A DNA stretch of 64,000 nucleotides from Coriobacteriia bacterium. GTDB lineage: Bacteria; Actinomycetota; Coriobacteriia; Coriobacteriales; RUG033. Location: the NCBI GenBank assembly GCA_015655215.1, contig JAATFL010000013.1, forward strand, positions 371 through 64,370. The letters run 5' to 3'. A program made the translations under genes and the position numbers. The notes beneath the pieces are model-generated. The model worked only from the letters and a program-made list of their open reading frames with translations, searched no databases and was not told where the DNA came from. Shown piece after piece: positions 6,722 through 45,650 of this stretch. Position 1 is the first letter of the stretch. Each line of letters starts with the position of its first letter.

Positions 6722-6740
6722 GGCCTTCCTCTTTCTCTGC

Positions 6741-14162: not shown

Positions 14163-14416
14163 TGTTCCTTGTCCCGGTCTGTGAGGAGTCTCCTGAAGGA
14201 TACTCCGTCCTATGATCCTGAACGCTCTCGACACCCCTGTCCATGATCCGTGAGGTAAGCGATCCGCTGGCAAGTGTATCAAACGCCTCCTACGACAACG
14301 GGATGAGCGCTTGAGGTTCTCTGCGCCGCGAAGGCGGTGTCGTCTCGCGGGCGCTTCCCTGCCGGCGTTCCCGCCGTTGGCGAGGGGAGGGAAGTCGATC
14401 GGATGGGGGCGCCGTG

Positions 14417-15856: not shown

Positions 15857-15982
15857 CCATTCACCAGCAGTCTTGCGGTCATCGACAATTTGGGTGGTGA
15901 TAGAAGTATAGCGGCCATGAACAGGATGCGGGGCATCCGATGGACGCCCCGCATCGAGAATCCCATGCAACAATCGATCAGT

Positions 15983-17524
15983 TTACTCCCATGAGGTGGT
16001 TGAGGCGGCGTTCGCACCTGCGATACGGCCCCATGCAAGTCCGCCGGTGAGCGACGTGCCCGAACCCGGATAGTAGAGACCATACCACCCGCCTGAGTTC
16101 ATACCACCGGAGAAGAGGTGGGGGATGGGGTCGCCTGAGAGCGAGATCACCTGCGCATCGACGTTGATCTTCAACCCGCCCAGTGAACCGAGGTTCGCCG
16201 ATACGTTCTTGTAGGCGTAGTACGGTGGCTTATCGAGTTGGATGAGTTGCGTGTTGCGGTGCCAGTCGAGATCCTCCCCCGTTTGGGCGATATTCGCGTT
16301 CCAGTCATTCATCGTCTGGGCGAGCGTTTGCGCCGGGACCCCCATCGCCTCCGCGAGGCTCTCATAGGTGTCCGCGGTCAAGAGGGTACCCTTGGCAACA
16401 GCCGAGTCGATGTCGCTGTACCAGGGTCCGAGCTTCTGTTCGACCATGCTCTGGTCAAGTACCATCCACGTGTCGCCGTCGAGCTGGGTGGCCTGCTGGA
16501 AGATGGCACGGTACGTGTAGGCGTAGGTGGCGTCCTCGCACACGAAACGCTTGCCGTTCGCGTTGACGAAGATGCAGGGTATCTGGGCGACGGCGTTGGT
16601 CGTCGCGTTGCCGGTGGCCAGGTCGTAATCGATGCATCCTCCCACGGTCGCAAGCGCGGCTCCGACCTCAAGGCCCATCCTGATGCCATCGCCGGTGGCG
16701 GTCGTGGCGATGTAGCTCTTCTGCGTGGTGAGGTCCCAGTACTGCTGCTGGTTCAGGGCTTTGGCAAGGTCCTCGTTCCTGTCGATGCCGCCCAGCCCGA
16801 GGACGACACCCCTCTTGGCCTTGATGTTGACGTCACTCCCGTCCTTCTTGGCGACGACACCGATGATGCCGTTGTCCCCATCGGTGATGAGTGATTCGAC
16901 GGTCACGTCGTACTCGAACGTCACGCCAAGATTCTGGGCCGCTGCGGTCTCGAGGTCGGTGACGATCTTCCCACCACCTGCTGCACCACCACCCTTGTAC
17001 ACGTGGATGCGGTCGGCGTGCAGGTTCTCCGCGTCGCAGTAGGGGACATGGCAGTTGCCGTACACCGACGTCCATTCCGTACCGATGCTCTCAAGCCACT
17101 TCAGGTCATCGGGGGCGGCGTCGCAGAGCGTGGTGATGAGGTCCTCTTCACCGATGCCCTCCGCTTGCTTGACGTAGCATCTGGCGTGGATGGCCGGCGT
17201 GTCGTTCTGAAAGGAGGTGAACTCCTTCTGCCATTCGGTTCCCGCTGCCTGGAACACGCCACCGGAGAGGGCCGTGGTTCCACCGGACTGGGATTGCTCC
17301 TCGAGGCAGAGCACCTGGGCACCGGCCTCGGCGGCGGCACATGACGCGGCAAGGCCCGTTCCCCCCGCACCGCAGACGATGACGTCGGTCTCCTCCGCCC
17401 ACTTGATGTTCGCGGCAGAGCTGCTCGATGAGGAACTCGAACATCCGGTCAAGACCCCGCCGGCAACTGCCGCGGCCCCGATCGCCGCACTTGTGATGAA
17501 CCCCCTGCGTGAAAGATTGGCCAT
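15983..17524 (-). CDS. Tat-exported FAD-dependent oxidoreductase, fumarate-reductase/flavocytochrome-c flavoprotein family (predicted lipoprotein)
   Basis: SD AAAGGGAGAA. Signal SRRGFITSA followed by lipobox LTGC and a poly-Ser linker. DVIVCGAGGTG. Confidence 0.9.
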   Translation of the reverse strand: MANLSRRGFITSAAIGAAAVAGGVLTGCSSSSSSSSAANIKWAEETDVIVCGAGGTGLAASCAAAEAGAQVLCLEEQSQSGGTTALSGGVFQAAGTEWQKEFTSFQNDTPAIHARCYVKQAEGIGEEDLITTLCDAAPDDLKWLESIGTEWTSVYGNCHVPYCDAENLHADRIHVYKGGGAAGGGKIVTDLETAAAQNLGVTFEYDVTVESLITDGDNGIIGVVAKKDGSDVNIKAKRGVVLGLGGIDRNEDLAKALNQQQYWDLTTQKSYIATTATGDGIRMGLEVGAALATVGGCIDYDLATGNATTNAVAQIPCIFVNANGKRFVCEDATYAYTYRAIFQQATQLDGDTWMVLDQSMVEQKLGPWYSDIDSAVAKGTLLTADTYESLAEAMGVPAQTLAQTMNDWNANIAQTGEDLDWHRNTQLIQLDKPPYYAYKNVSANLGSLGGLKINVDAQVISLSGDPIPHLFSGGMNSGGWYGLYYPGSGTSLTGGLAWGRIAGANAASTTSWE

Positions 17525-19658: not shown

Positions 19659-21134
19659 CTACTCTTCCTGCTCGATTATATTGAGCAGTTCCTGCTTGCT
19701 TGAGATACCCAGTTTCTTATAGATACTGCGCATGTGCGACTTCACCGTGCCCTGCGAGATGCAAAGCTCGTCTTGGATGTAAGGACCTGAACGGCCACGG
19801 GCAAGGAGGAAGAGCACCTCGGACTCACGAGTCGAAAGCGCATAACGTTCAGCGACGATGGCGCAATGTCCGTGCAACGTCTCCTCACCGCCAAAGCCCG
19901 TGCGCACCTCGATCAGATGGAGCGATTCCTCCCGTGGCTCGATGAAGGCACGTGCGACCGTGATGAGCACGATGGCTCCCACGATGACGTACGAGAAGGG
20001 CAGATGGATGGGGGAGAAGAAGTAGCCATAACCACCACAGCCCAGGCAAAACCCGAGGAAGTTGCCAAGATGCTGGATGAAACGGCATCTCGGTACCACG
20101 ACCATCGAGCCCGTGCTGTTGCGGAATGAGATATCGGAGTAGAGCATCCATGAGAACTGGTCGAGGAAGGTATAGCCTGCCATGGCGATTGCTATCCCAA
20201 TCCATACGGTGCCCTCATCCAACACCATGAGCAGGGCGAGGCCGCATACCATGAGAGGTACCGCAAGGCTATCGATGAACTCGAGCATCGTGACCAGCGA
20301 ACACCGTAGGGCGAGGACGAAGTTAGCGACCAGCGCAACCGTCACCCCCACCATCATCAGCATGGATGCGCCCTTGAACTCGACGGTATCCGGTGTCGCT
20401 ATGAAGCCGAGCATCACTCCGCTTACCAAGGCGAGGCAGAAGATGTAGGCCGGCATCCTGAAGTTCATCGACACAAGCTGTTGGGCCTCGGCCTTGCGAT
20501 AGGACCCGGCCCTTCTCGCACCACCCTTGCTCAAGACGAGGGTGGTGGCGCAACCGAGGGGCAGAAGGCATACGGCGGGTGTGGCGATGATGGGTGGTAG
20601 GCAGGCAAGTAGGTAGAAGACGATGAATGCGAAGACGCCGGATATGACGAGCTGTATCATGCCGCGGCTCGGCCGACTGTTCGCCCAGAACTGTGCACCG
20701 GCAATCATCTGCGTCGCGATTCCGAAGCCGATGGCGACCGTCGAGAGCAGGAGGATGGGGATGGCACTGTAACCTTCGATGGGGACGATGGCAAGCGCGG
20801 TCCCAGCCGAGCTCAGCACTCCCCCGATGACCACGAGGCGTTTGGATATCCTCGTCGTTGGACGGAAGTGCCCCACGATCGCCCAGATAAGATAGCCGCA
20901 GGTGATACCGAATATGAACGAGCATCGAATCGTCTGTATCCTCGCACCGTCCCCTATGAAACCGTAGAGGTTGGAGCCCATCACCGCGCAGAGAAACCAC
21001 GCGTAATAGAAGCCGTGCCCAAAAAGCTCCCAGCTCCTCTCGCGCAGCGAGTGGAGCTTTTCAAGATCCTTATCCTCCCGTATAACGGGACCCCTTTGAT
21101 GCGGCACCGCGTCCAAAACCCTATCTACCATCAT
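19659..21134 (-). CDS. Polytopic-membrane LuxR-family transcriptional regulator
   Basis: The ORF-track start at 21431 would overlap the divergent gene. ATG 21134/21131 follows GAGGA..GGGGGG. N-terminal WELFGHGFYYAWFLCAVMGSNLY motif shared with the regulator at 49255. C-terminal HTH LSTRESEVLFLLARGRSGPYIQDELCISQGTVKSHMRSIYKKLGI. Confidence 0.85.
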   Translation of the reverse strand: MMVDRVLDAVPHQRGPVIREDKDLEKLHSLRERSWELFGHGFYYAWFLCAVMGSNLYGFIGDGARIQTIRCSFIFGITCGYLIWAIVGHFRPTTRISKRLVVIGGVLSSAGTALAIVPIEGYSAIPILLLSTVAIGFGIATQMIAGAQFWANSRPSRGMIQLVISGVFAFIVFYLLACLPPIIATPAVCLLPLGCATTLVLSKGGARRAGSYRKAEAQQLVSMNFRMPAYIFCLALVSGVMLGFIATPDTVEFKGASMLMMVGVTVALVANFVLALRCSLVTMLEFIDSLAVPLMVCGLALLMVLDEGTVWIGIAIAMAGYTFLDQFSWMLYSDISFRNSTGSMVVVPRCRFIQHLGNFLGFCLGCGGYGYFFSPIHLPFSYVIVGAIVLITVARAFIEPREESLHLIEVRTGFGGEETLHGHCAIVAERYALSTRESEVLFLLARGRSGPYIQDELCISQGTVKSHMRSIYKKLGISSKQELLNIIEQEE

Positions 21135-21140
21135 CCCCCC

Positions 21141-21250
21141 AAATCCTCGTCTCATTATGATAGTCGACCCGACAAATCCTTTCGACCCTTTTGGATGATT
21201 TCGGGATAATCCTTCAATCCCCATCTTTTGGAAGGTGCGAATCCTTTCCG
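21141..21250. promoter_or_regulatory. Four phased direct repeats (A)ATCCT(T) at 32-33 bp spacing in the LuxR/reductase divergent intergenic region
   Basis: ATCCT occurs at 21143, 21176, 21209 and 21241. Copies 2 and 4 read AATCCTTTC(C)GA. Copies 2 and 3 are each followed by CTTTTGGA. Confidence 0.3.
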
Positions 21251-21314
21251 AAGCATATAGCTTCGTCGTCGAGGGCGGACACGGGGCCTGCCCGGAAAAC
21301 CATAGGGAGGAAGC

Positions 21315-23015
21315 ATGGATTTGAATCGACGTGGGTTTCTGAAAGGTGCTGCGGGCGTGGGCGCATTGGCCGCGATAGGCGGTCTCGCAGGGTGCGCGAC
21401 GAGTGCGGCGAACGACTCGGCCGAAGGCCAAAACGCAGCGGAGAGCTCCTCGGCCAGTTGGCGCGTCGCACCCGAGCCCATAACCGATATCTCCAGCACC
21501 ATGGAAGCTGACTTCATCATCGTCGGTGCGGGCAATACGGGCATGTGCGCAGCTACGACGGCTATCGAGAATGGAGCAAGCGTGATCGTGCTCGAACAGT
21601 TCGACACGCCTCAGAACTCACGCAGTTGGCTCGGCGCGATCAACTCTTCGTTGCAACGGCAGATGGGTTACACGGCAGACCCCGTCGAGGTGACCAATGA
21701 CATCTGCCGGTACTCCAACTACCTTGGCAACCAGCGTCTCATCAGCCTCTGGGCAAATCGCTCCGGCGAGTTCGTCGACTGGTGGCGCAGCATCATCGAG
21801 CCTCTCGGTGCGGATACGATCCTCGAGACCAAGTGCGATGACTATAAGTACATGAACATACCGACTGCCCACCATCTGGTCGCCGCCCCCAAGAAGCTCG
21901 AGGGCAACCAACTCTACGTCGCCAACGTGCTCCTGCTCCCGTATCTTCAAGGCAAGGGGGTCGATTTCCACTTTACGACGACTGCTGACTACTTGGTCCA
22001 GGAGGATAGCGGCAAGGTCACGGGTGTCATCGGTACCGACGCTGATGGCAAGCACATCCAGTTCAACGCGAAGAAGCTCGTCGTCGTCGCATGCGGTGGG
22101 TTCGCGGGCAACCAGGACATGATGGATGATCTGGTTGAGACGGGTCACCGTTACTGCTCCTTTGGCATGGACATCGTCCGCCCCCTCGGTCGTGGTATGC
22201 AGATGCTGTACTGGGCCGGTGCACAGCTTGCGCCCGTTCAGGAGACGATGATCTTTGACCGTGGCACCGTACCCGATGGCGCCACGGTTGGAGGCATGCC
22301 CTTCCAGGGTGGGATCTGGTATGGCGGATCGCTGCCGTTCTTGCGTGTCAACGTGGAGGGCGAACGGTTCTTCAACGAGGACCAGCTCTATGACTGGAAC
22401 TGGAATGCGGCGATATCGCAGCCCACGCACACGTGGTGGCAGGTCTTCGATGGCAAATTCTACCAGGATGCGACCAAGTTCCAGAACACCCGTTGTGCCC
22501 GTATCGTGTCCGACCCCGATGGTGGGGCTCCCAACACCGCATGGATCGATGGTAAGTCGCCGCTCGACGAGGACTTCATCATGGCACAGCTCAACGACGT
22601 CATAACGACCACGGCAGGCAAGAAGGCCGACACGCTTGATGCCCTGGCCCAGCAGATGGGTGTGGACAAGACGACCTTCCTCGCCACCGTGAAACGCTAT
22701 AACGAACTCGCTGCCTCTGGTGTGGATAACGATTTTGGCAAGGAGGGCTATAGGCTTTCGACGCTTGAACAAGGCCCCTATTATGCGGTTCACTGCGCTG
22801 GTTGGATCCTGTGCACAATCGGTGGTGTCAATACCGATCTCGACTTACACCCCGTCGACGCCGACGGCAATCCCATCGAGGGTCTGATCGCAGCCGGAAA
22901 CGAGGTGGGTAACTTCTACACCACCACGTATCCCGAGACGTACGGGGGCCTCAACATGGGTCGCAACCTGACGCTCGTCTGGTATGCCATCCGTCGTGCG
23001 TTGGGTATCGAGTAG
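21315..23015 (+). CDS. Tat-exported FAD-dependent oxidoreductase, fumarate-reductase/flavocytochrome-c flavoprotein family (predicted lipoprotein)
   Basis: SD AGGGAGGAAGC. NRRGFLKGAAG followed by lipobox LAGC. DFIIVGAGNTG. Confidence 0.9.
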   Translation: MDLNRRGFLKGAAGVGALAAIGGLAGCATSAANDSAEGQNAAESSSASWRVAPEPITDISSTMEADFIIVGAGNTGMCAATTAIENGASVIVLEQFDTPQNSRSWLGAINSSLQRQMGYTADPVEVTNDICRYSNYLGNQRLISLWANRSGEFVDWWRSIIEPLGADTILETKCDDYKYMNIPTAHHLVAAPKKLEGNQLYVANVLLLPYLQGKGVDFHFTTTADYLVQEDSGKVTGVIGTDADGKHIQFNAKKLVVVACGGFAGNQDMMDDLVETGHRYCSFGMDIVRPLGRGMQMLYWAGAQLAPVQETMIFDRGTVPDGATVGGMPFQGGIWYGGSLPFLRVNVEGERFFNEDQLYDWNWNAAISQPTHTWWQVFDGKFYQDATKFQNTRCARIVSDPDGGAPNTAWIDGKSPLDEDFIMAQLNDVITTTAGKKADTLDALAQQMGVDKTTFLATVKRYNELAASGVDNDFGKEGYRLSTLEQGPYYAVHCAGWILCTIGGVNTDLDLHPVDADGNPIEGLIAAGNEVGNFYTTTYPETYGGLNMGRNLTLVWYAIRRALGIE

Positions 23016-23320: not shown

Positions 23321-24496
23321 ATGGGAAAGGAGATAATCGTGGGAGAGGAACTAGCTGATTCTGCAGCATACAGACGACTGGAGGCATCCATCCAGGAACC
23401 TGAGAGCGAGGAGATGCGCGCCTGGAAGGACGCCGGAGGGAAGGTCATCGGATGCTTGTACAACAACATCCCCGAGGAATTGATCGTCGCTGCAGGTTTG
23501 ACGCCCTATCGGATCAGGGCAGTGGGAAGCACCGGGGCCGAGCTTGCCGATTCCCGATTCTCCCAAATCAACTGCAGCCTTGTCCGTCATCTCTACGATT
23601 CGGCGAAACGTGGTCGCTTCGACTTTATCGATGGTCTTGTGGCGGCGAACGACTGCGATCATATGCGGAAGCTCTACGAGAACTGGAAAGCCACGATAGA
23701 CGAGCCCTACTTCTATTTTCTCGGTTTTCCCAAGAAGCATGGGGAGCCGCAGGCTGCTCGCCTCGCAACGATGCTCGGCGATTTCAAGAAGAGCCTCGAA
23801 GGGTCGTTCGGAGTGGAGGTCACCGATGAGAAGCTGCGCGCGGCGATTGACCTCCTCAACGAGATCCGCCAGCTTCAACGGGAATTGCGTGATATGTGCA
23901 CGTCCGATGACCCTCCGATCTCGGGCGCGCAGATGCTCACCGTGGCGATTGCCGGAGACTCGATGCCCAAGAAGGTCTATCGGGATCTGCTGCGTCAACT
24001 TGTCATCGACGTGAGGTGCATGGGCGATGCGACGCGACCTCGCGCACGGCTGGTCATCTATGGCGGGGAGATCGACTCACCGGAGTTGCTGGTTGCCATC
24101 GAGAGCCAAGGTGCATTGGTCGTGGCAGACTCTCTGGGCGGATTTGGTTCACGGAACTGCGCCTGTGATGTTTCGACCACGGGGGATCTGCTCTTCGATC
24201 TGGCCCATTGGCTCGTCGTCGATCGGCCTCATGAACCACGAACCTTCAACACGGCTCCTGAGCGCTATGCGTACGTCGATGGGATTTGCAAAGAGTATGG
24301 TGCTGACGGCGTGGTGCAGGTTCACGTCTCGATGTGCGATCTCTGGTCGTACGACCGCCTTAACTTCGATAGACATGCGGGCATGAGGAACATCCCGTGC
24401 TTGGACTTGGACATCGAATACGTCCTTTCTGGAGAGGGTCAGCTCAAGACGAGAGTCCAGGCGTTCGTCGAAACCATCACTGACAAGGAGCGATAG
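23321..24496 (+). CDS. 2-hydroxyacyl-CoA dehydratase / benzoyl-CoA reductase (HgdB/BcrB-like, HGD-D family) subunit
   Basis: Family-typical blocks KVIGCLYNNIPEELIVAAGLTPYRI, SQINCSLVRH and LVAANDCDHMRKLYENW. The start is ATG 23321 or GTG 23339; the latter lies 7 nt after AAGGAG. Confidence 0.85.
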   Translation: MGKEIIVGEELADSAAYRRLEASIQEPESEEMRAWKDAGGKVIGCLYNNIPEELIVAAGLTPYRIRAVGSTGAELADSRFSQINCSLVRHLYDSAKRGRFDFIDGLVAANDCDHMRKLYENWKATIDEPYFYFLGFPKKHGEPQAARLATMLGDFKKSLEGSFGVEVTDEKLRAAIDLLNEIRQLQRELRDMCTSDDPPISGAQMLTVAIAGDSMPKKVYRDLLRQLVIDVRCMGDATRPRARLVIYGGEIDSPELLVAIESQGALVVADSLGGFGSRNCACDVSTTGDLLFDLAHWLVVDRPHEPRTFNTAPERYAYVDGICKEYGADGVVQVHVSMCDLWSYDRLNFDRHAGMRNIPCLDLDIEYVLSGEGQLKTRVQAFVETITDKER

Positions 24497-24497
24497 C

Positions 24498-25787
24498 ATG
24501 AAAAGGGGACTTGAGCGTTGGTATAGGTACAAGGAGGTATTCTCCGGCGCACTGTCTGCTGAGGAAGCGAAGGGCGAGCAGGCGAACCCGGTGCAACTTG
24601 CGTTCTTGAAGATAGTCGTCGACCACGTGGATCGCATCATCGGGTGCGTCGAGAGCGGCAAACCTCTCGCGTCGATCTGGTACGGCAATGCGCCCGAGAT
24701 ATTCGCCGCTCTGGGAATTGACTGGTACTGTCCCGTCGACATGGTGTTGGCAAGCCAGGCCTTCACGTCAGACCTCGCCGAGGTGCATACGTCGTCCACG
24801 CCCGATGATTCCTGCGGACTTATCCAGCTTGCCGCCCAGGCGGTCGAGAAAGGGTATGTTCCAACTCCCAACTCGATCATAGCGATGTTGGAACCTTGCG
24901 ATGCGCAGACGTCGGTACATGATGCATGGCTCAGCGTCGACGCATGGAGCGATATACCAACCTTCGCGTTGGACTACCCCTATGGGTCGACTCAGGGGGA
25001 CTTCAAGTACTTTGCCGATGAGCTTGGTCGGATGATCGCGTTCCTCGAGGACCTCTACGGCGTGAAGATGGATTGGGACAGGCTGAGGGAGGTTTGCGAG
25101 ACCAGTAACCAGATGTATGCAGCCTGGTCGGACCTTAACGATCTGCTGTGCGCGGTTCCATGCCCCTTGCCACCCATGATATCGGCAGAGTTGGGTTGGA
25201 ACGTCACCCAGCACTTGCTTCCACCTGGGAGTCCTGACGCGATCAACCTCTTCAACCTGCTTTCCGCCGGGGCCCGCCAGGCAGTCGAGGCCGGCATAGG
25301 GGCCGTCCCTCACGAGCAGGTCAGGATACTGTGGGCGGATTTGGATGGGACGTGGGCTGCCAGTATGCTGGCTCCTTGGCTTGCGGAGAAGTACGGTGCG
25401 GTCATCGTGCAGACATTCCAAGGTCATACGCCCTACCTTCCCATCGACACCTCCTCCCCGGAGAGCATGCTGCTCGGCGTGGGGAGGCGGAGTATCAGCG
25501 AGGTCCCGATGATTCGCCAGGCACGTGGTAGCGTGGGGGTGTTCATCGAGGATATCAAATCGATGGTGAACGACTATACGATCGACATGGTCTTCTTCCC
25601 GGGGCACAAAGGGCATAAGGACCAGTCTGCGAACATCGGATTTCTACGGGAAACGTGCCACGATATCGAGGTGCCGCTCTTCGCCTTCACCTGTGACCTG
25701 TTCGATCCCACGTGGGTTCCCATCGACCAGTTGAAGCGCTCCATAGACGAATTCTTCGAGACGCAGGAGATCAGGCCGCTCGGATAA
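24498..25787 (+). CDS. Second 2-hydroxyacyl-CoA dehydratase/benzoyl-CoA reductase-family subunit
   Basis: ATG lies 7 nt after AAGGAG and 1 nt after the upstream stop. Paralogous architecture (SIWYGNAPEIFAALGIDWYCPV, LEPCDAQTS). The C-terminal FFPGHKGHKDQS...FTCDLFD is typical of this family. Confidence 0.85.
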   Translation: MKRGLERWYRYKEVFSGALSAEEAKGEQANPVQLAFLKIVVDHVDRIIGCVESGKPLASIWYGNAPEIFAALGIDWYCPVDMVLASQAFTSDLAEVHTSSTPDDSCGLIQLAAQAVEKGYVPTPNSIIAMLEPCDAQTSVHDAWLSVDAWSDIPTFALDYPYGSTQGDFKYFADELGRMIAFLEDLYGVKMDWDRLREVCETSNQMYAAWSDLNDLLCAVPCPLPPMISAELGWNVTQHLLPPGSPDAINLFNLLSAGARQAVEAGIGAVPHEQVRILWADLDGTWAASMLAPWLAEKYGAVIVQTFQGHTPYLPIDTSSPESMLLGVGRRSISEVPMIRQARGSVGVFIEDIKSMVNDYTIDMVFFPGHKGHKDQSANIGFLRETCHDIEVPLFAFTCDLFDPTWVPIDQLKRSIDEFFETQEIRPLG

Positions 25788-25841
25788 GCGTCACTCCGGA
25801 TGCGGCGCTGCGTACCTGGAATACACGTCGAGAGGGGAGTC

Positions 25842-26681
25842 ATGTATTTTGCTGGGTGTGATCTGGGTTCTACGACGGGGAAGGTGGTCATCCTCGACGA
25901 TGCCGGAGGTGAGGTCTCGATAGCGGGATGGTCGGTCGTCCCGGCAAGCTACCTTCCAGAAGACACGGCCGGTGCCGCTTTCGACGATGTCCTGCACCGG
26001 TGCTCGCTCGACTCCCTCGATGACCTCACCGCGACCTGCTGTACAGGTTACGGCCGCGCGAGCGTGAGCTATATCTCTGATAACGTATCAGAGATCACTT
26101 GTCATGCCCGGGGCGCACGCTGGGCCCATCCTGGCGCCCGGACGATAATCGACATCGGTGGGCAAGACGTGAAGGCGGTGGTGCTGAGCGGTACGGGGAA
26201 GGTGCTCGATTTCGCGATGAACGACAAGTGCGCCGCGGGGACGGGAAAGTTCTTCGAAGTCATGGCAAACACCCTTTGCTGCAGCTTGCCGGAGCTCGGG
26301 GAGCTTGCACGAAGGGCCGGCGCATGCGCGCACATGACGAGTCAGTGTAGCGTTTTCGCCGAAAGCGAGGTCATCGCCTATATGAACCAAGGCACCGCCC
26401 GTGAGGATATAGCTGCAGGCATTCACGAGTCGATCGCTCGAAGGCTTTTCTCAATGGCCGAGAGGGTGGGTTATCGTGAGGATGTCGTCTTAACGGGTGG
26501 GTGCGCCAAGAACGAGGCGCTTCGCGTTGCCCTCGAAGGTCTCCTCGGATGCTTGTTGGTACGTCTTCCGATCGATCCCCAGATAGTCGGTGCCCTCGGT
26601 GCCGCCCTCTTCGCGAGAGAGCACCACGCATCCGCCGCAAGAAGATCGGATGCCCCCACGCGATCGACAGGAAGGGCATGA
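25842..26681 (+). CDS. HgdC/BcrAD/BadFG-type ATP-dependent [4Fe-4S] activase
   Basis: ATG 25842 follows gagaggggag. ASKHA N-terminus FAGCDLGSTTGKVVILD. DIGGQD. Cluster-bridging Cys motifs NDKCAAGTGKF and SQCSVFAESEV. Confidence 0.9.
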   Translation: MYFAGCDLGSTTGKVVILDDAGGEVSIAGWSVVPASYLPEDTAGAAFDDVLHRCSLDSLDDLTATCCTGYGRASVSYISDNVSEITCHARGARWAHPGARTIIDIGGQDVKAVVLSGTGKVLDFAMNDKCAAGTGKFFEVMANTLCCSLPELGELARRAGACAHMTSQCSVFAESEVIAYMNQGTAREDIAAGIHESIARRLFSMAERVGYREDVVLTGGCAKNEALRVALEGLLGCLLVRLPIDPQIVGALGAALFAREHHASAARRSDAPTRSTGRA

Positions 26682-26682
26682 G

Positions 26683-27423
26683 ATGCAGATGACGGCCTTC
26701 GACGATCTGATCGGGAGGGTTTGCGGGTATACCGCGGAATGCGGCGAGGCACGTGCCTCGCATATCGGAGCTTCTGAGCGAATAACGTCGATCCCGAAGG
26801 TGTGTGGCGGAGTCGTCCTCAGGTCTCAGATGCACTGTGAACTTGGAGGGCCCTCGGAACATTCGTGTGGCTATTGCCTGCCCACGGCGAGCAGCAAGGG
26901 ATTCGAGGATGGGCGCGTGCGCGTGCTGGGCATGGGGTGTGGTGAGATGCCAAAAGGCGCCTGCGTGCCGTTCGCTCAGGTGCTGCTGCTTGCCGGCGAG
27001 GGCCTTGACGACTCCAACTTTCAAAAGCTCGTCGACTCCCAGCATGCGAGGTCGCTCGTACCCGGTTACATGATGAGGTCGTATCCGGGCAAGATGTGGG
27101 GGAGAGTCTCCGTCCAGGCCGTCCAGGCGGGATTTGATTTCGAGACGCTCGGCGCCGCTTTGAGGGAGCACGTTACCAAGGTGGTTCCCGAAGTCGAACT
27201 GTTCGAGGCGATCTTCGCAACAAGAGCAGCTGACGTGAAGTTTCTCGAAGGTCTTTCAAGCGAATATCTCGGAATCACCCATGACCTGAAGAAGAAGCTG
27301 TGGGGTGTGAAGGGCATCGACATCGACTGTCCCTTCGGCGGGCACTGTGGTGCCTGTTCCCGCAAGGACACCTGCGACGAGATACGGCATTTGAGTGCTT
27401 TGAGGAAAGTGGAAGGTGAGTGA
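26683..27423 (+). CDS. Cys-rich protein resembling the N-terminal/middle part of acetyl-CoA synthase (AcsB/CdhC), truncated before the Ni-binding domain
   Basis: ATG 26683 follows AGGAAGGG, 1 nt after the activase stop. Blocks CELGGP, EDGRVRVLGMG..MPKG..VPF and WGRVSVQAVQAGFDFETLGAAL match ACS blocks as I recall them. C-terminal C-x5-C-x2-C-x5-C. Being a real gene: high confidence. Family assignment: moderate, from memory only. Confidence 0.65.
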   Translation: MQMTAFDDLIGRVCGYTAECGEARASHIGASERITSIPKVCGGVVLRSQMHCELGGPSEHSCGYCLPTASSKGFEDGRVRVLGMGCGEMPKGACVPFAQVLLLAGEGLDDSNFQKLVDSQHARSLVPGYMMRSYPGKMWGRVSVQAVQAGFDFETLGAALREHVTKVVPEVELFEAIFATRAADVKFLEGLSSEYLGITHDLKKKLWGVKGIDIDCPFGGHCGACSRKDTCDEIRHLSALRKVEGE

Positions 27424-27427
27424 GTCC

Positions 27428-28333
27428 ATGGGAATCAAGATGTATGGGGAACCTGCTCTCCGGATGCATTCCAATCCGATGGCATCGTGCTTCGATTGCA
27501 AGAGAGAGGCCAGGTTCCACCATGTTGCAGCAGGGCAAGCGCATGAGCACTTACGATTCTGCGCGAAGTCCCACGAGGGGCACAGGGTGATCGCAGTCTG
27601 CGGGAAGGGCGGTGTGGGTAAGACGGCATTCTCCGCTCTCGTGTTGGGGGCGATGGTCCGCAGCGGCGTGTTCGGACGGATCCTCGTCGTCGATGCCGAC
27701 CCTGCCCTGGGCCTTGGCCTTGCTCTCGGCGTACCAGTTGGAAAGACCATCGGATTTGTGCGGGAGGAGATACTACGTACCGCCGGGTCCAAGGACCTGC
27801 AACTCGAGGCGGAACTTGCGGGGAAGCTTGACTATCTGATTGCCGAATCTCTTACGGAGGCAGACGGCTATGCGTTCATGGCGATGGGACACAGCGATTC
27901 GCTTGGCTGCTATTGCTCCGTGAACGATCTGTTGCGGGACGCTATCCAGGTGCTGATCGCAGATTTCGACACGGTGCTCATCGATGGCGAGGCGGGACTA
28001 GAGCAGATAAACAGGCAGGTCGTCGCCGGTATCGATCGTTTGATCGTCCTATCGGACGGTTCTTGCAGGGGTATGAATACCGTTAATTTGATTTATGATA
28101 TTGCCAAGAGGGAGCATCTCGTCGAAGCGGAGCGCATCGGAGTGGTGTTCAACCGCGTCCTTGCTGGTATCGACGAAGCCCAGCCCCTTCCCAAGGAGAT
28201 GAGCCTTTTGGGTATCGTCCCCTTGGATCCGGTCGTTGCACGGTGCGATGCGCAGGGGATACCGTTGGATAGGCTCTCACCGGATACGCCGGCTGCTCAC
28301 AGCGTGTGGCATATAGTCGAAGGACTGTTCTGA
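27428..28333 (+). CDS. CooC/AcsF-type (MinD-superfamily) metallocentre-assembly ATPase
   Basis: Deviant Walker A CGKGGVGKT (about 27598-27624), VVDADP, and the CooC-diagnostic C-x-C motif GCYCS (27908-27916). The start is uncertain. ATG 27428 gives a 53-aa Cys/His-rich extension. GTG 27587, after GAGGGG, gives the canonical MIAVCGKGG start. Confidence 0.8.
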   Translation: MGIKMYGEPALRMHSNPMASCFDCKREARFHHVAAGQAHEHLRFCAKSHEGHRVIAVCGKGGVGKTAFSALVLGAMVRSGVFGRILVVDADPALGLGLALGVPVGKTIGFVREEILRTAGSKDLQLEAELAGKLDYLIAESLTEADGYAFMAMGHSDSLGCYCSVNDLLRDAIQVLIADFDTVLIDGEAGLEQINRQVVAGIDRLIVLSDGSCRGMNTVNLIYDIAKREHLVEAERIGVVFNRVLAGIDEAQPLPKEMSLLGIVPLDPVVARCDAQGIPLDRLSPDTPAAHSVWHIVEGLF

Positions 28334-28599: not shown

Positions 28600-29790
28600 C
28601 TAGCGTTCGTAGATCTGCCCTTTGCCGAGCAGGTCGTAGAGCCTGTCGTACATCGGGTTTGTGCCGGCTCTGGGTTTTCGAGGGGCCTTCACCTCATAGC
28701 GCTCTCCCATCCCCTCGGCCAAGGCCGCTGCGGGGACCTCCCCGTCGACCGTGATGGCACCCCGCAGGCAGATGTCACGGCAAAGGCAGCAGCGAACGCA
28801 GCGGGAGGGATAGTGGCCTATGGCGGTGGATCCGCCCTCCTCGTATTTGACCAAGGCCCCCGTGGGACAGAAGTTCGCGCACATCATGCATGCCATGCAG
28901 AGGTCCCCGTCGATGCGCACGTGGCCCCAGAGGCGCGTGGGGATCTCACCGGCTTCGGGATAACCGAGCAGCGACAGCCAATCGAGGAGTTTCTCGCGAC
29001 GTGCAGGGACGAAGCGTGGGAGGCTGCCGTCCTCTCCCACGTGAGCGTAGCGTGGGCTTGCCTGCCGTCTCTCGGATGGATCGTCCACGACGCTCGTCAC
29101 GGCGGACACCGCCGCGCTCCTCGCGCCTTGCTTCATCTGTGAGAGGAACTCGCGGCGTGAGACGCCTTGCGCACGTTCAAGGTCCGCGTCCTCGAGCCAT
29201 GCATCGTCTGGGAGCTCTTTCGCAAAGACGAAACCGGCATCCGTATAGCCACATGCCTCCATGAGGGTGGTCGCCGTATCGCAGACGAGGCGTGCGGTGT
29301 TCAGACCGTTCCCATACGGGCACTGGTCGCAATCCCCGGACACGAGCACGACCGTCTTGGCTCCATTGGCGATGAGTCCCACCAGGAACGACTCCTCCAT
29401 GCGCCCGAGGCACGTGGCTTCCACGATCGTGCTGCGTTCATAGGGGTCACGGCAGCTCTCGAGATACGTCGAGCAGACGATGACGGGGTTGCCATCCGTC
29501 GCCTTCGTGGCGGCCAGGCCGTTCGCGAACAGGGTCTCATCAGGTGGGTTCCTCGCCTCAAGGGCACCGGTCGGGCAGGCGGTCGCACAGGTGCCGCATC
29601 CGATGCAGAGGTCGGGAATGACGTCGAGTCTGTCTCCATCGCACGAGATGGCACCCGACGCGCAGGCATCCGAGCATCTTCTACAGCTGGCGTTGCGGTT
29701 GCGCACCAGCACGCAACGCTCCTGATGGACGGCCATGCTCGGACTTTCGATCCTCTCGAGGATATCCAGTATGCTCGCGATGTTTGGCAT
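28600..29790 (-). CDS. Polyferredoxin-like Fe-S protein (4Fe-4S dicluster - MvhD/FlpD-like Cys domain - 4Fe-4S dicluster)
   Basis: SD GAGAGAGGGAAC. CIGCGTCATACPTG; central VVLVSGDCDQCPYG; C-terminal CMACMMCANFCPTG and CVRCCLCRDIC. Confidence 0.85.
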   Translation of the reverse strand: MPNIASILDILERIESPSMAVHQERCVLVRNRNASCRRCSDACASGAISCDGDRLDVIPDLCIGCGTCATACPTGALEARNPPDETLFANGLAATKATDGNPVIVCSTYLESCRDPYERSTIVEATCLGRMEESFLVGLIANGAKTVVLVSGDCDQCPYGNGLNTARLVCDTATTLMEACGYTDAGFVFAKELPDDAWLEDADLERAQGVSRREFLSQMKQGARSAAVSAVTSVVDDPSERRQASPRYAHVGEDGSLPRFVPARREKLLDWLSLLGYPEAGEIPTRLWGHVRIDGDLCMACMMCANFCPTGALVKYEEGGSTAIGHYPSRCVRCCLCRDICLRGAITVDGEVPAAALAEGMGERYEVKAPRKPRAGTNPMYDRLYDLLGKGQIYER

Positions 29791-29858: not shown

Positions 29859-31432
29859 TCAGCCGGGCAGTTGCTTCTCTTCCTTCAGTTTTTGGACCGT
29901 GGCGTCGACGAGGTCGATGAGTTCCTGGCGCGAATGCACGTTGAGCTTCACATAGACGTTGTGGGTGTGGGTGCGAACCGTATTCCAGGAGAGGGTCATC
30001 TGCTCGGCGATGTAGTTGCTGCTCCGTCCCATGGCGAGGTAGCGGAAGGCCTCCTCCTCGCGCTTCGACAGGGAGTACCTCTCCGAAAGGTACTCGGTGC
30101 CCTCCCGGAACAGCCCGCTCTTCTTGGTCGTCTCCTGTTTGACCAGGTCCTGCTCGAGGAGGGTCTGAAGGTCGAGCTCACTTTCATCGGCGGGCGAGAA
30201 CAGCCTGTCGAAATCGCGCTCGGTGAAGATCATGAATCCCATGATGAGGATGAGTGCTGCGAGGATGAGGTAGAACACGAACGCGTTGGGTAATGCGAGG
30301 ATGGTCGGCATGACCGTTATGCCGATGAACCAGCCGAGTGCATCCCCCAGCATGAGCCCTCCCCAGCCGAAGGAGAAGACGACGAGCGAGGAGACCTTCT
30401 TCTGATAGACGATGAACGCGAGCAGGTTCCAGACCACGAATTCGAAGATCACCTGCAAGAAGCCGAGGAGCAGCACCATCATGCCCCCGTAGTTGCCAAC
30501 CAGCGGTACGAACGCGATGACGAAGACCATCAGCAGTGCGAGCAGCGAGTAGAGGCGATCGAAGTCGATATGCCGCATCTCTGCGCTCACCGTGAGGAAT
30601 ATCACGAGTAAGGCGAGGACCACACGGAGGGCCGTAAGCGAGTTGCTACCGGTGACCGTGGTCTCGAGCGCGTCCGTATCGATGACGACGCTGCGGATGA
30701 TGCTCACCACTCCGGCGAGGAACGTGACCATCAACGTCATCTTCCAGAAGGAGCGTGGCAGGCTGTCCAGGTGCAGGTAGTAGAGAACCTGCTCCTTGCA
30801 CCCATCGTCGGGCTTTCTGGGCAGCGTGCACAGCCAGGCGGTGAGGAGAGGCGGAGTATCAGGGCGCAGATTCCCGATGCCGGAGGACCGCCCTTGACCG
30901 GAGCCCAATGGGGCACACCCATCGCGAAGAAGTAGAGGCAGACGATGACAACCTGCGAAAGCGCGGCGTAGAGGAGCACCTTGCGGGGAGGCAGCTCACC
31001 GTAGAGCTCCCCGCACTTCAGGGCAAGTACGGCGGTTCCCGCCCCCGTAAACAGTGAACCTACGTAGAACAGGGGAGGTGCGGCAAGGTAGTAGGGGCCG
31101 GCGAGGATCACCAGGAGGGACCCGATGCTCGCTATCGTGGCAGCACCGACGATGCTCCTTCGACTGGCGAGCAGCTTCTGAAACGCCGATGCGGCGAGGA
31201 ACATCACCGCGCAGGCTATCGCGAAGGTAAACGTGGACGTGATGTAGAGATACGAGAGATAGGTGCCGTTGATCTCCGTATCGGAAAGCCAGACGGATCC
31301 GCTGTAGGTGAGGAAGGCCCAGGCGAGCCAGGACCCGAGGGAAAGATAGGGAAGCGCCGGCCATAGCGTGGTGAGCTTCTCGCCGAATCCCGTCTTCCCC
31401 GTTTGAGTGGTGCCGTGGATCAACGCGGCCAT
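29859..31432 (-). pseudogene. Polytopic-membrane LuxR-family regulator interrupted by a -1 frameshift (or sequencing error)
   Basis: The N-terminal TM half lies in ORF 30737..31546, starting at ATG 31432 (MAALIHG). The C-terminal TM half + HTH (LSKREEEAFRYLAMGRSSNYIAEQMTLSWNTVRTHTHNVYVKLNV) lies in ORF 29859..30908. The two frames overlap by 172 nt. The combined length (~520 aa) matches the intact paralogues. Confidence 0.7.
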
Positions 31433-31696: not shown

Positions 31697-32476
31697 ATGA
31701 CGGAATCGGGCATTGGGGAATTCCTGAGCGAGGAGGCACTCGAAAGAGGGGATGAGGACGTGGCCCTCGACGCGTGCGACGAACGCGTGGATGTCGCCTC
31801 CGGCGAAGGCACGGCCGAAGTAGTCAATGGGCTCACGCGCGAGGAGTGCCGTGAGAGGCTCGAGAACATCTTCAAGCGCCACGCAGCCCACCGCGAGATC
31901 TTCTATCAGATCCTGGTCTTTTGCCAAGAGATGCGGCTTCTCCCCAACATCGAGGAGGGGATCGCGACCTATCCCGAGTTCAAGCATGCGGCGCAGAGCC
32001 CGTACCATTTCATCCGCACCTTGGAGGAGGCGGGTGGTCTGACGCGCATCGAGTTGGACGAGAAGGAAGACGAGGTCACGCCCGAACGCAAGGAGGGCCT
32101 CGGTGAGGACGCGATCGACGAGTTGGTCCATGACTACGTGTTCGAGACGACCGACGCTGGCAGGGAGACCGTCAAGGCGCATGACCCCGTAAGGCGCATC
32201 CTCGAGCTTCTCGACGACCTCCCCGCCCGCAAGGACACCTACATAGAGCTCATGGACTTCTGCAAGGAGAGCCCTCGCGCCTATACGGAGGTGGGACGAT
32301 TCCTCGAGGGGCACGATGCCCTCAAGCACGTCGACGTCGCATCGGGGCAGGTCCTGCAGCCGAGCGTCTTCTTGGACAAGCTCGAATCTGCACATGCGAT
32401 CGTGTGGGATGGCGGCTGGATATTGACGGAGGAGGGAAGAGGGTACCTGGTTGCGTTGGAAAGCCCAGCCGCTTGA
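31697..32476 (+). CDS. Acidic hypothetical protein, first gene of the Mo-oxidoreductase operon
   Basis: ATG 31697 follows gaagggaagagggg. 259 aa with no signal peptide. Two internally similar segments end in winged-helix-like strings (HFIRTLEEAGGLTRIE and IVWDGGWILTEEGRGYL); that reading is inference. Confidence 0.7.
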   Translation: MTESGIGEFLSEEALERGDEDVALDACDERVDVASGEGTAEVVNGLTREECRERLENIFKRHAAHREIFYQILVFCQEMRLLPNIEEGIATYPEFKHAAQSPYHFIRTLEEAGGLTRIELDEKEDEVTPERKEGLGEDAIDELVHDYVFETTDAGRETVKAHDPVRRILELLDDLPARKDTYIELMDFCKESPRAYTEVGRFLEGHDALKHVDVASGQVLQPSVFLDKLESAHAIVWDGGWILTEEGRGYLVALESPAA

Positions 32477-32532
32477 ACGATAGGGAGAGCAAGGACGGAT
32501 CGGTTCACAGGACACAGGGAAAGGAAGGGATT

Positions 32533-35331
32533 ATGCCAGAGACGGTTCAACTGACACGTCGAAGCTTCATCAAGGCCTCCGCTCTTGCCGGAGCGGCAGC
32601 CGCCATCGGCGCATCGATGTCGGGCTCGCTCGTGGAGACCGACGCGGCGTATGCCGACTCCGCAACCGAGACCAAGAAGGTGCACACCTCCTGTCATGGA
32701 TGCATCCAGGTCTGCCCGGCGTACGCCTACATCGAGAACGGCGTCGTCACGAAGCTCGAGGGCGATCCGGATGCCCCCACGAGCAAGGGGTCGCTTTGCA
32801 TGAAGGGTCTCAACCAGTTGCACACCATGTACAGTCCGCGCCGCATCCTGCATCCACTCAAGCGTGCGGGGGAGCGTGGGACGAATGACTGGGAGGTCAT
32901 CTCCTGGGACGAGGCGATAAGCCTCGCGGCCGATCAGATCACGAGCACCATCGACAAGTACGGCTCGTACTCGTTCTTCGCCTCCGTCGGCGGCGGAGGC
33001 TCCTACTCGTTCATGGAGGCCATGACACTGCCGATGGCCCTCAATTCGCCGACCGTCTTCGAACCCGGCTGCGCCCAATGCTACCTGCCGCGCTACGCCA
33101 TGGCGAAGTTCGTCTACGGCGCAAACGACCAATCCATCGCCGACAACGCCGTCATAGAACCCTTCAACGAGTATACGAACAAGACCGAGATGCTGGTTCT
33201 ATGGGCAGCGCAGCCCTCGGTGAGCCAGACGGCCGAATCGGGCCACGGGATGGCCGACCTGCGGGCTCGCGGATGCAAGACGGTCGTCGTCGACCCCAAC
33301 TTCAGCCCCGACGCCGTCAAGGCGGACGTCTGGCTGCCGGTTCGTCCGGGTACGGATACCGGGCTCTTGCTCTCGTGGTTCCGCTACATCTTCGAGAACA
33401 AGCTCTATGACGAGAAGTTCACCAAGTACTGGACGAACCTGCCGTTCCTCATCGACCCCGACACCAAGCTCCCCGTTGAGGCCGCGGAGCTCTTCCCCAG
33501 CTACGTCTCCCCGACGCCGGAGAACACGCCTGCATATGTCTGCTACGACCTGAGGACGAACTCCGTCCAACCGTTTCCCTTCAGCGCACCTGACAGTTCC
33601 CCGGTCGACCCGGATATCTTCACGACGCAGACCATCGACGGCAAGACGTACAAGAGTGCCGGCCAGATATACAAGGAGCAGGCCGAACCCTGGACCCTCG
33701 AGCACGCCGAGGAGGTCTGTTGGGTCCCTGCCGATCGCATCGAGGCGGCCGTGAAGCTCTACACGGATGCCGATGTCGCCGGCATCGCCAACGGGGTCGC
33801 CTCCGACATGACCGAAAGTGCCTCGCAGGTGCCGCTCGGGTGCCTTGGGCTCGATATGGTCATGGGGTATGTGAACAAGCCCGGATGCACGCTCACGCAG
33901 CGTGACCTCTCGAGCGTCCCCACCGTCCGCCCGGTCGCCCACTACAACGGCTTCGATGGCATGTTCTCCGACATCTACGGCGTGGGTGCGGTCGTGGGCA
34001 TGAGTCCCGCGGAGAACGAGGCCCGCATCAAGGCCTTCCCCCCGGACCGTCAGGCGCAGTACAACAAGCTGCTCGTCGACCGTCTGGGCATGAAGGAGCA
34101 CAAGGGTCTGTACGCTTGGTGCCACTCGCACATCCCCACGGTGCGCGAGGCCATCGCGACCGGCGAGCCCTTCAAGCCCCGAGTCTGGTTCGACATGTCC
34201 GGCAACAAGCTCGCCATGCTGGGTAATGCCAAGTCGTGGTACGAGGTCTTTCCCGAGGTCGACTTCATCATCGGCCAGTACCCCATGCTGACCTCGTTCC
34301 ATATAGAGGCCGCCGACCTGGTCTTCCCCTTGCGCGAATGGCTCGAGGAGCCCATGGTCAACATGACGCAACAGAACACCACCTGGCTGCAAAACGAGTG
34401 CACGCATATAGGCGAGACCGTTTCCCACAGCATCCCCGCAGGCCAAGTACTCGATAAATGCGAGGAGATATGGGGCAAGCTCCCCGGCCTCGCACCTGGG
34501 TACCTGGGCGACCACACCGAGGCGGACGTCAAGCAGGGCGTCGCCGACAGTCTCAAGGCCGCCAGCTGGGATGAGCTCATGGCGAACACGGACAAATACG
34601 TCCCGCTGGTCGTCCCCCCGAAGGATTTCTACCAGTACTACCAGCATGAGGTCGTCGTCTCAGACGGTCTACCCGCAGGTTTCGGCACGGAGTCACGTAA
34701 GTGCGAGCCGTATTGCACGCTCTTGCTCAAGATGGCGCGCACCGGATACCCGTTCTGCTACCCCGTGGCCCAGGAGGCATGTGACGACTACTCGCCGATA
34801 TGCGAGTTCATCGAGCCAGCCGAGAGCCCCGTCGGCGATAGCGAGTATCCGCTCGTCCTCACTTCCGGTCGCGTCCCCTACTTCCACCACGGCACCATGC
34901 GCCACGCCGCCTTCGCACGGGAGCTCTACCCAGCTCCCGACGTGCGCATCAACCCCGCGACGGCGGAGGAGCTCGGCATCGAGCACATGGAGTGGGTCAA
35001 GGTCTCCTCGCGTCGTGGTGACATCTCCGGTCGGGCCTACCTCACCGAGGGGGTCAACCCCGGCGTCGTCTGGATGGAGCGCTTCTGGAACCCTGAGTGC
35101 TTCGACGAGTCGCAGACCCATAAGACCGCCGGTTGGCGTGAGTGCAACGTGAACATCCTCACCAAGAACGACGCTCCCTTCAACGAGGTCTTCGGCTCCT
35201 ATACCAACCGCGGCTTCACCGTCAAGGTCGAGAAAGGCGCGCGGCCGGACAACATCTGGATCGAGCCCAAGGAGTTCGAGCCCTTCCTACCTACGCTCCG
35301 TAGCGAGCCGACCACGAAGGATGTGTTCTAA
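32533..35331 (+). CDS. Molybdopterin (bis-MGD, DMSO-reductase-superfamily) oxidoreductase catalytic subunit, Tat-exported
   Basis: ATG 32533 follows ggaaaggaaggga. Tat signal TRRSFIKASALAG with an AYA cleavage-like site. N-terminal FS0 motif C-x2-C-x3-C-x27-C (HTSCHGCIQVCP...SLCMKG). 932 aa. Confidence 0.9.
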   Translation: MPETVQLTRRSFIKASALAGAAAAIGASMSGSLVETDAAYADSATETKKVHTSCHGCIQVCPAYAYIENGVVTKLEGDPDAPTSKGSLCMKGLNQLHTMYSPRRILHPLKRAGERGTNDWEVISWDEAISLAADQITSTIDKYGSYSFFASVGGGGSYSFMEAMTLPMALNSPTVFEPGCAQCYLPRYAMAKFVYGANDQSIADNAVIEPFNEYTNKTEMLVLWAAQPSVSQTAESGHGMADLRARGCKTVVVDPNFSPDAVKADVWLPVRPGTDTGLLLSWFRYIFENKLYDEKFTKYWTNLPFLIDPDTKLPVEAAELFPSYVSPTPENTPAYVCYDLRTNSVQPFPFSAPDSSPVDPDIFTTQTIDGKTYKSAGQIYKEQAEPWTLEHAEEVCWVPADRIEAAVKLYTDADVAGIANGVASDMTESASQVPLGCLGLDMVMGYVNKPGCTLTQRDLSSVPTVRPVAHYNGFDGMFSDIYGVGAVVGMSPAENEARIKAFPPDRQAQYNKLLVDRLGMKEHKGLYAWCHSHIPTVREAIATGEPFKPRVWFDMSGNKLAMLGNAKSWYEVFPEVDFIIGQYPMLTSFHIEAADLVFPLREWLEEPMVNMTQQNTTWLQNECTHIGETVSHSIPAGQVLDKCEEIWGKLPGLAPGYLGDHTEADVKQGVADSLKAASWDELMANTDKYVPLVVPPKDFYQYYQHEVVVSDGLPAGFGTESRKCEPYCTLLLKMARTGYPFCYPVAQEACDDYSPICEFIEPAESPVGDSEYPLVLTSGRVPYFHHGTMRHAAFARELYPAPDVRINPATAEELGIEHMEWVKVSSRRGDISGRAYLTEGVNPGVVWMERFWNPECFDESQTHKTAGWRECNVNILTKNDAPFNEVFGSYTNRGFTVKVEKGARPDNIWIEPKEFEPFLPTLRSEPTTKDVF

Positions 35332-36734: not shown

Positions 36735-36877
36735 GGTCAACCCGCTTCGCCTCTCCTGTGTGGGAGTCGTCCTCGTACTCCGGTGCACCGGTCCCGTCGG
36801 GCGAGGGGCATGGCATCCTTGGGGAGGGGCAATAGATTGCAAGATCACAAGCCGCTCAGTAGGGAAGGTTGATCACC

Positions 36878-45418: not shown

Positions 45419-45650
45419 GATCTCCTCGACTTCCCTCTACGGTTTCGATACGGCGATGTGCCGGTAGGATGCCTGCGGTGTCCCCTCACGCTCCCCGTAT
45501 GTCCGGCGTGTTCAGAGTCGCGCCTGCGGGCATCTTCTTCATCTGCCGTTTTGTCGGAAAGTTCTCTACCGTTTTGGGGGAGATTGCCCCAACGGCGGGC
45601 TTTGCCGAGCATGAGAGGTGGATAAAGGAAGCGAATCATACGACAATGTC

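Follow-up and report, generated by a model that had tools for sequence, protein, structure and literature searches.

The gene at positions 26683-27423 (plus strand) of a 64,000-nucleotide stretch from a Coriobacteriia bacterium (GenBank assembly GCA_015655215.1, contig JAATFL010000013.1, positions 371 to 64,370), hereafter called the window, encodes a stand-alone protein that is homologous to the middle (A2) domain of acetyl-CoA synthase (ACS). This ACS-like gene is the fourth in a five-gene operon, whose first three genes code for homologues of the two catalytic subunits and the activase of class I benzoyl-CoA reductases (BCRs) and 2-hydroxyacyl-CoA dehydratases (HADs), and whose fifth gene codes for a CooC/AcsF-type ATPase. 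The protein belongs to a new family of stand-alone proteins that derive from ACS, and the functional context of this family is new as well, although its components are of known kinds. We tentatively propose that it is an accessory iron-sulfur (Fe-S) subunit of BCR/HAD-type radical enzymes, with electron transfer as its likely role.

Homology and cysteine motif of the ACS-like protein

The open reading frame starts with ATG, ends with TGA and codes for 246 amino acids, as given in an initial annotation that had been made from the sequence alone. Use of an alternative GTG start at 26590 would produce an overlap of 92 nt with the upstream gene, and the homologues begin at the ATG instead. The initial annotation had also named three blocks shared in the same order with AcsB and CdhC, and these aligned as claimed with Pfam and NCBIfam profiles and in phmmer searches of the PDB. 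In the latter, the blocks ELGGP, DGR..GxG..P.G..PF and W.RVS..A...GF were matched residue by residue to CdhC/ACS, the alignments covering residues 14-159 of Methanosarcina thermophila CdhC (9c0s_E) and 328-479 of Moorella ACS. The match to Pfam PF03598 (CdhC) over residues 42-180 reached 43 bits (E 5.7e-11), well above the curated cut-off of 24. With NCBIfam models, the protein covered positions 15-161 of cdhC and 310-457 of AcsB, which correspond to the A2 domain; the equivalog cut-offs were missed by far (TIGR00316, 49 bits vs 356; NF040764, 37 vs 800). Taking profiles and Foldseek together, we assigned residues 42-189 (26806-27249, plus strand), with the blocks ELG, DG..GPD, GYM.R, W139.R141.S and GF, as the A2 homologue.

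The predicted structure led to the same relatives. An AlphaFold2 model, for which 19 homologues were used as input, had a mean predicted local distance difference test score (pLDDT) of 84.9 and a predicted TM score of 0.80. When this model was compared with the PDB by Foldseek, all 23 matches with E<1e-3 were ACS chains and the next match had an E value of 0.5. The best match was 1oao_C (E 2.3e-13), and 1oao_D and 1mjg_M superimposed with a root mean square deviation of 1.7 Å over about 162 columns. Since the matches of the model are confined to ACS chains, the homology to ACS is real, and it spans the A2 domain and the start of the C-terminal domain, with the fold and sequence blocks shared over about 150 residues.

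An exhaustive profile search among 1.84 billion cluster representatives retrieved 806 proteins with E<1e-3 and 211 (50%-identity clusters) with E<1e-30. Among the matches listed, nearly all relatives are stand-alone proteins of 230-290 amino acids, and all of them come from metagenomes or metagenome-assembled genomes (MAGs). A typical member has about 250 residues, with an A2-like domain and, towards the C-terminus, the motif (C-x3-5-)C-x2-C-x5-C, a description that fits the window protein. NCBI records label the relatives 'hypothetical protein', and JGI pipelines name them 'CO dehydrogenase/acetyl-CoA synthase beta subunit'. When 185,579 species-representative genomes were scanned with a degenerate DNA pattern that encodes GIDIDC-x5-CGxC, no match was obtained. 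Searches of the literature on CdhC-like or AcsB-like proteins, on CooC in combination with benzoyl-CoA reductases or 2-hydroxyacyl-CoA dehydratases, and on these enzymes in Eggerthellaceae yielded no description of the ACS-like family, which, given the partial journal coverage, is absence of evidence only.

Near its C-terminus the protein carries CPFGGHCGACSRKDTC (residues 216-231; 27328-27375, plus strand). This motif, C216-x5-C222-x2-C225-x5-C231, is predicted from conservation and profile alignment to be a metal or cluster site; after it come a C-terminal helix and the stop codon. In 145 family representatives (50% clustering), C222, C225 and C231 were conserved in 100% and C216 in 86%, so that the four C-terminal cysteines picked out by the initial annotation are indeed a family feature. 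The same cannot be said of the additional N-terminal Cys pairs that it had listed: they are present, but the remaining cysteines are unconserved in the alignment, C62 reaching 30%. The window protein has eight such extra residues within its first 94 positions (C14, C20, C41, C52, C62, C65, C86 and C94; 26683-26970, plus strand), and its total of 12 cysteines is the highest among 259 family members, for which the median is 5. The ferredoxin motif C-x2-C-x2-C-x3-C-P was not found in it.

The family profile could be aligned to CdhC residues 4-201 (E 4e-22) and to residues 306-511 of Carboxydothermus hydrogenoformans ACS (E 5e-21), and both alignments stop there, at CdhC residue 201 and ACS residue 511. 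C216, C222 and C231 fall on CdhC C189, C192 and C201. In ACS structures these residues supply three of the A-cluster's four cubane ligands, and the second one bridges to the proximal Ni; its counterpart C222 matches Cys509, the Ni-bridging residue of Moorella ACS. The x8 spacing between C222 and C231 is that of ACS, and in both families D-[VI]-D precedes the first Cys. Of the ACS cubane site (C-x2-C-x8-C-x9-C), ligands 1-3 align with C216, C222 and C231, the fourth has no counterpart, and C225 is an addition without equivalent in ACS. The protein does end shortly after the motif, as had been noticed, although 15 residues and not about 20 beyond C231, and for this reason both the fourth cubane ligand and the Cys-Gly-Cys Ni ligands are missing. 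No Cys-Gly-Cys occurs anywhere in the protein, in agreement with the earlier claim that the Ni-ligand domain is absent. As compared with ACS, the protein also lacks A1 and the body of A3, and hence has no Ni-Ni site.

Another feature probably retained from ACS is the Trp/Arg patch that contacts CoA in that enzyme. There, acetyl-CoA is bound mostly by A2, where Trp405 (Clostridium autoethanogenum numbering) stacks against the adenine (bioRxiv 10.1101/2024.08.05.606187). By offset arithmetic, this residue would correspond to W427 of the Moorella enzyme and to W139 of the family, and across the representatives W139 is conserved in 95% and R141 in 99%. The His and Arg that are catalytic in ACS A2 have been lost, the family consensus at these positions being Q-Y.

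The five-gene cassette and its relatives

The operon extends from 23321 to 28333 (plus strand), with intergenic gaps of 1-12 nt or overlaps. Its first two genes encode proteins of the HGD-D family, assigned with Pfam (the first also with NCBIfam) and by alignments: a BzdN/HadC-like subunit (23321-24496, plus strand; here the alpha subunit), closest to BzdN (8s02_B, E 1e-35) and HadC (E 2e-29), and a BzdO/HadB-like subunit (24498-25787, plus strand; the beta subunit), closest to BzdO, MbdO, the double-cubane cluster protein DCCP and HadB. The third gene (25800-26681, plus strand) encodes a single HgdC/BcrAD-type (BcrAD/BadFG) ATP-dependent activase (PF01869, E 3e-58; TIGR00241, 238 bits, above the cut-off), whose stop codon lies 1 nt upstream of the ATG of the ACS-like gene. 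These three genes thus resemble the heterodimer plus activase of class I BCRs (BzdNOPQ, MbdONQP), of HadBC with HadI and of DCCP. The cassette differs from the characterised BCR, HAD and DCCP systems in that none of these contains an ACS-like or CooC-like component.

The fifth gene (27416-28333, plus strand) encodes a P-loop ATPase with a deviant Walker A motif (GKGGVGKT) and a CxC motif (GCYC). The initial annotation had recognised this neighbour as CooC/AcsF-type, and profiles and PDB alignment bear this out: the best PDB match is CooC1 (3kje, E 2e-12), with both motifs aligned. What it had missed was the BzdNO/HAD-type five-gene cassette around the pair. In contrast to CooC1 and AcsF, the ATPase is not encoded beside carbon monoxide dehydrogenase (CODH) or a complete ACS, and in the window copy the N-terminus is extended by about 55 residues (27416-27600, plus strand) that are rich in Cys and His (CFDC...HH...HEH...C...HEGH). 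This extension recalls the metal-binding tails of Ni chaperones. It is unique to the window, as none of the 21 related CooC-like proteins that were inspected has it. GKGGxGKT and GC[YF]C are invariant in the CooC-like proteins of all loci checked. An in-frame ATG at 27428, after the Shine-Dalgarno-like GGAAGGTGA, is an alternative and possibly the true start. AcsF inserts Ni into ACS, and by analogy the window ATPase may bind or insert Ni in an ATP-dependent manner.

The arrangement was compared across 26 distinct loci, comprising the window, metagenome contigs and MAGs assigned to Dehalococcoidia/Chloroflexota, Thermodesulfobacteriota/Desulfobacteraceae, Spirochaetales and Microthrixaceae/Acidimicrobiales (Actinomycetota). 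Two HGD-D genes were located directly upstream of the ACS-like gene, with or without an intervening activase gene, in all 24 loci for which upstream sequence was available, and a CooC-like gene followed directly downstream in 22 of the 26. Only one ACS-like/CooC-like pair was present even where catalytic genes were more numerous, as in loci with a duplicated BzdO-like gene (L007 and L010) or with two BzdNO-like pairs (L011, L012 and L028), or where two activase genes for heterodimeric activases occurred (L027 and L028). Locus L029 has just the two HGD-D genes and the ACS-like gene (6503-9774), with no activase or CooC-like gene nearby; therefore, the tightest linkage of the ACS-like gene is with the catalytic subunits. 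Genes for an enoyl-CoA hydratase, a thiolase-like protein, an amidase and a molybdopterin enzyme surround this locus.

The gene context differs from that of ACS in every locus examined: no CODH, corrinoid protein (CoFeSP) or methyltransferase was encoded in the 64-kb window, in the annotated loci or among 134 neighbour genes of 20 related loci. These 134 genes did not include a Ni transporter either. Recurring among them were short-chain dehydrogenases, flavin adenine dinucleotide (FAD) oxidoreductases, aldehyde:ferredoxin oxidoreductases and acyl-CoA dehydrogenases. Several related loci contain genes for acyl-CoA dehydrogenase, enoyl-CoA hydratase and CoA ligase, and no CoA-activating enzyme was found in the neighbourhood of the ACS-like gene in the window. 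A conserved ferredoxin gene is not part of the cassette.

The catalytic subunits themselves proved to be variable at their cluster sites. In the structure of BzdNO, an [8Fe-9S] double cubane is held by C36, C73, C100, C263, C293 and C327 of BzdN, and the catalytic [4Fe-4S]-OH2 cluster by C95, C128 and C380 of BzdO (PMC11971306). All six double-cubane cysteines were kept in 18 of 21 cassette alpha subunits. The window subunit is different from BzdN in that C45, C85, C112 and C339 are present and G274 and E305 replace the other two. In the window alpha subunit and in those of L001 and L002, to which it is most closely related, Gly and Glu/Asp stand at the positions of C263 and C293 and the first Cys is shifted by two residues, a HadC-like Cys pattern. 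Since two of the six double-cubane cysteines are missing, the window alpha subunit may carry a single cubane, as does HadC.

In the beta subunits, the first two cluster ligands (C106 and C134) are invariant. When these proteins were aligned to BzdO, MbdO and DCCP, however, the third canonical Cys was found to be replaced by His373, within a GHxGHKD motif in which Lys374 is nearly invariant, in 23 of 27 sequences; in the window the motif reads GHKGHKD, with the codons of H370-D375 at about 25605-25622. Additional conserved cysteines are C222 (VPCP motif) and C387. From this pattern, the active-site cluster of the BzdO-like subunit would seem to be ligated by His or altered in some other way. 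A second clade of beta subunits (L025-L029) has kept the canonical third Cys. Among the loci compared, the presence of CooC correlated neither with the His-for-Cys change nor with the three-Cys or four-Cys form of the ACS-like protein. As neither variant tracks CooC, the ACS-like protein would be a general accessory of a broad BCR/HAD branch.

Possible functions of the ACS-like protein

The strongest clue to function is a cassette that combines a BzdNO/HAD-type enzyme with an HgdC-type activase. We tentatively suggest that a module consisting of the A2 domain, the first helix of the ACS C-terminal domain and the cluster-binding loop was recruited to ATP-dependent BCR/HAD enzymes, and that the CooC/AcsF-type ATPase came along with it. 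The module would bind one [4Fe-4S] cluster through C216, C222, C225 and C231 and, serving as an adaptor or for electron entry, would attach to either the enzyme or the activase. The CooC-like ATPase would load or repair the metal site of the module, and a CoA or ADP moiety might still be bound via the W139/R141 patch. A role in electron entry is favoured because the enzymes need a low-potential donor, because the cassette has no conserved ferredoxin, and because one metagenomic family member of the three-Cys type (P0118) carries a fused C-terminal 2x[4Fe-4S] ferredoxin domain with two CxxCxxCxxxCP motifs. Such a fusion can be read as a 'Rosetta stone' hint at electron transfer. The suggestion of the initial annotation that this is a repurposed metal-cluster or CoA-binding scaffold would agree with these data.

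Several observations weigh against an electron-transferring Fe-S subunit. C216 is missing in 12-14% of the family, one subgroup having C-x2-C-x5-C only, and the fourth cubane ligand of ACS has no counterpart. The Cys loop is the part of the model with the lowest confidence (pLDDT 58-70), and the ferredoxin fusion is known from P0118 alone. The conserved A2 domain, including its CoA-contacting Trp and Arg, exceeds what an electron carrier needs, even if the catalytic His and Arg are gone. Moreover, the CooC-like neighbour is weakly explained, because a simple [4Fe-4S] cluster does not require a CooC-type ATPase of its own, and four of the 26 loci (L017, L025, L026 and L029) have no adjacent CooC-like gene.

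The CooC-like neighbour is best accounted for by a different explanation, which we nevertheless consider unlikely. Here, the motif would hold a Ni-bearing remnant of the A-cluster, either a cubane plus Ni bridged by C222 and C225 or a mononuclear Ni(Cys)3-4 centre, with the metal inserted by the CooC-like ATPase, and the site, lying where the protein meets the BzdO-like subunit, would contribute to catalysis or to the handling of thioesters. An ATPase of this type with an invariant CxC, adjoining in 22 of the 26 loci, parallels the pairing of ACS with AcsF, and C222 aligns with the Ni-bridging Cys and has a second invariant Cys, C225, close to it. The likeness of the ATPase N-terminus in the window to Ni chaperones points in the same direction, as does the replacement of a cluster Cys by His373-Lys374 in most of the BzdO-like partners (23 of 27). 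However, with three or four cysteines and no Cys-Gly-Cys, the ligands would not suffice for a cubane and Ni unless a partner contributed, four loci do without CooC, the neighbour genes include no Ni transporter, and relatives of CooC could handle Fe-S clusters or Zn just as well. More doubtful still is the wider idea that the ACS-like/CooC-type pair marks a Ni-dependent or heterometallic branch of BCR/HAD enzymes, with an A-cluster remnant at the His-Lys BzdO-like interface. If true, this branch would rely on a Ni-Fe-S cofactor of a new kind to carry out low-potential reductions or dehydroxylations, and a gut-type Coriobacteriia-like organism would be among those that have it.

It also seems unlikely that the pair acts outside the working enzyme, as a scaffold and insertase that builds the [8Fe-9S] or His-ligated clusters of the BzdNO-like proteins in the manner of NifH/NifEN-type systems. 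Fe-S carrier and maturation ATPases are of the same class as CooC, and a maturation role would be consistent with the location of the pair at the 3' end of the operon and with the single pair that accompanies multiple BzdNO-like copies (L007, L010, L011, L012 and L028). The six double-cubane cysteines present in most related alpha subunits (PMC11971306) are in line with it as well. On the other hand, BzdNO with its [8Fe-9S] cluster was obtained in E. coli from a bzdNO plasmid, and added maturation genes are not described (PMC11971306). Furthermore, the ACS-like gene occurs without CooC in L017, L025, L026 and L029 and alongside alpha subunits without the full set of double-cubane cysteines (window and L001), and the protein shows no scaffold-like excess of conserved ligands.

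We give little credence to a non-redox adaptor, in which the Cys motif would hold structural Zn and A2 would bind the CoA/ADP part of the substrate or tether partners. The conservation of W139 and R141, which would match the residues of ACS A2 that contact CoA, and the acyl-CoA dehydrogenase, enoyl-CoA hydratase and CoA ligase genes of several loci would fit such a role, and the short C-x2-C loop could form a zinc knuckle. Nevertheless, the cysteines are homologous in position to cubane ligands, the three-Cys subgroup suits an open-site cubane better than a zinc site, one family member is fused to a ferredoxin, and the window neighbourhood has no CoA-activating enzyme.

Finally, a decayed or mis-called fragment of a genuine ACS gene, as the JGI name of the relatives might suggest, is refuted by family size and synteny: there are hundreds of intact members of about 250 amino acids with identical ends, the synteny is strict across phyla, neither the window nor the related loci contain CODH, CoFeSP or leftover ACS sequence, and the score remains far under the ACS equivalog cut-off (49 vs 356 bits).

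Surroundings of the cassette and significance

Directly upstream of the operon lies a gene for a flavoprotein reductase of the FAD_binding_2 family (21315-23015, plus strand), which would be exported by the twin-arginine translocation (TAT) pathway according to a Pfam TAT-signal match, and before it a LuxR-type membrane regulator (19659-21431, minus strand). Genes for FAD_binding_2 and short-chain dehydrogenase proteins recur near the cassette in other loci. The window has six FAD_binding_2 reductases in total (40-1731; 15983-17524, minus strand; 21315-23015; 40090-41859, minus strand; 43754-45418, minus strand; and 47348-49030, minus strand), at least one of them, that at 21315-23015, with a TAT match. 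Interleaved with these are five LuxR-type regulators with long N-terminal regions (14417-15973, 19659-21431 and 29859-30908, all on the minus strand; 45618-47195; and 49204-50700). This layout is typical of the substrate-inducible reductases of Eggerthellaceae, and together with a molybdopterin oxidoreductase gene it gives the window a Coriobacteriia/Eggerthellaceae-like gene content.

Convergent with the operon is a gene for a polyferredoxin of 396 amino acids (28600-29790, minus strand), in which Pfam and NCBIfam recognise an MvhD/FlpD-like domain as well as two Fer4 dicluster regions. This protein might serve as electron donor, but no counterpart was found by tblastn in related loci. Farther downstream, a TAT-exported molybdopterin oxidoreductase (32404-35331, plus strand; 975 amino acids when the GTG start is used) and a NarJ/DmsD-type chaperone of the Nitrate_red_del family (36869-37618, plus strand) are candidates for another respiratory reductase. 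On the other side of the window are genes for an SPFH/Band-7 protein bearing a double zinc ribbon at its C-terminus (2440-3498, minus strand), a fusion of an aldo/keto reductase with a 4Fe-4S dicluster domain (8757-10052, plus strand) and an SbcC/SbcD nuclease pair (10258-14420, minus strand). An SPFH protein also occurs in the published 21-dehydroxylation cluster Elen_2451-2454. The cassette itself was considered as the steroid 21-dehydroxylase of Eggerthellaceae, whose alpha-hydroxyketone substrate would suit a ketyl mechanism. This candidate was rejected: Elen_2451-2454 consists of a molybdopterin enzyme with FdhD, a ferredoxin and the SPFH protein.

Class I BCRs, HADs and double-cubane proteins perform some of the most reducing chemistry in biology, and according to current descriptions their systems comprise two catalytic subunits and an activase driven by ATP. 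The cassette described here indicates that a widespread branch of this radical-enzyme family carries, in addition, two genes of the ACS machinery, a truncated ACS and a CooC-type metallochaperone, which offers a lead on the electron supply to these enzymes or on a special metal site within them. The annotation of the family is to be corrected accordingly. The ACS-like protein should not be annotated as an ACS subunit nor read as evidence for the Wood-Ljungdahl pathway, which the label 'CODH/ACS beta subunit' would falsely imply. For the organism of the window, a likely Coriobacteriia-type anaerobe, the position of the cassette in a reductase-rich island means that the substrate may be diet- or host-derived. 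For the family as a whole, the finding represents a modular reuse of an ancient carbon-fixation domain beyond C1 metabolism.

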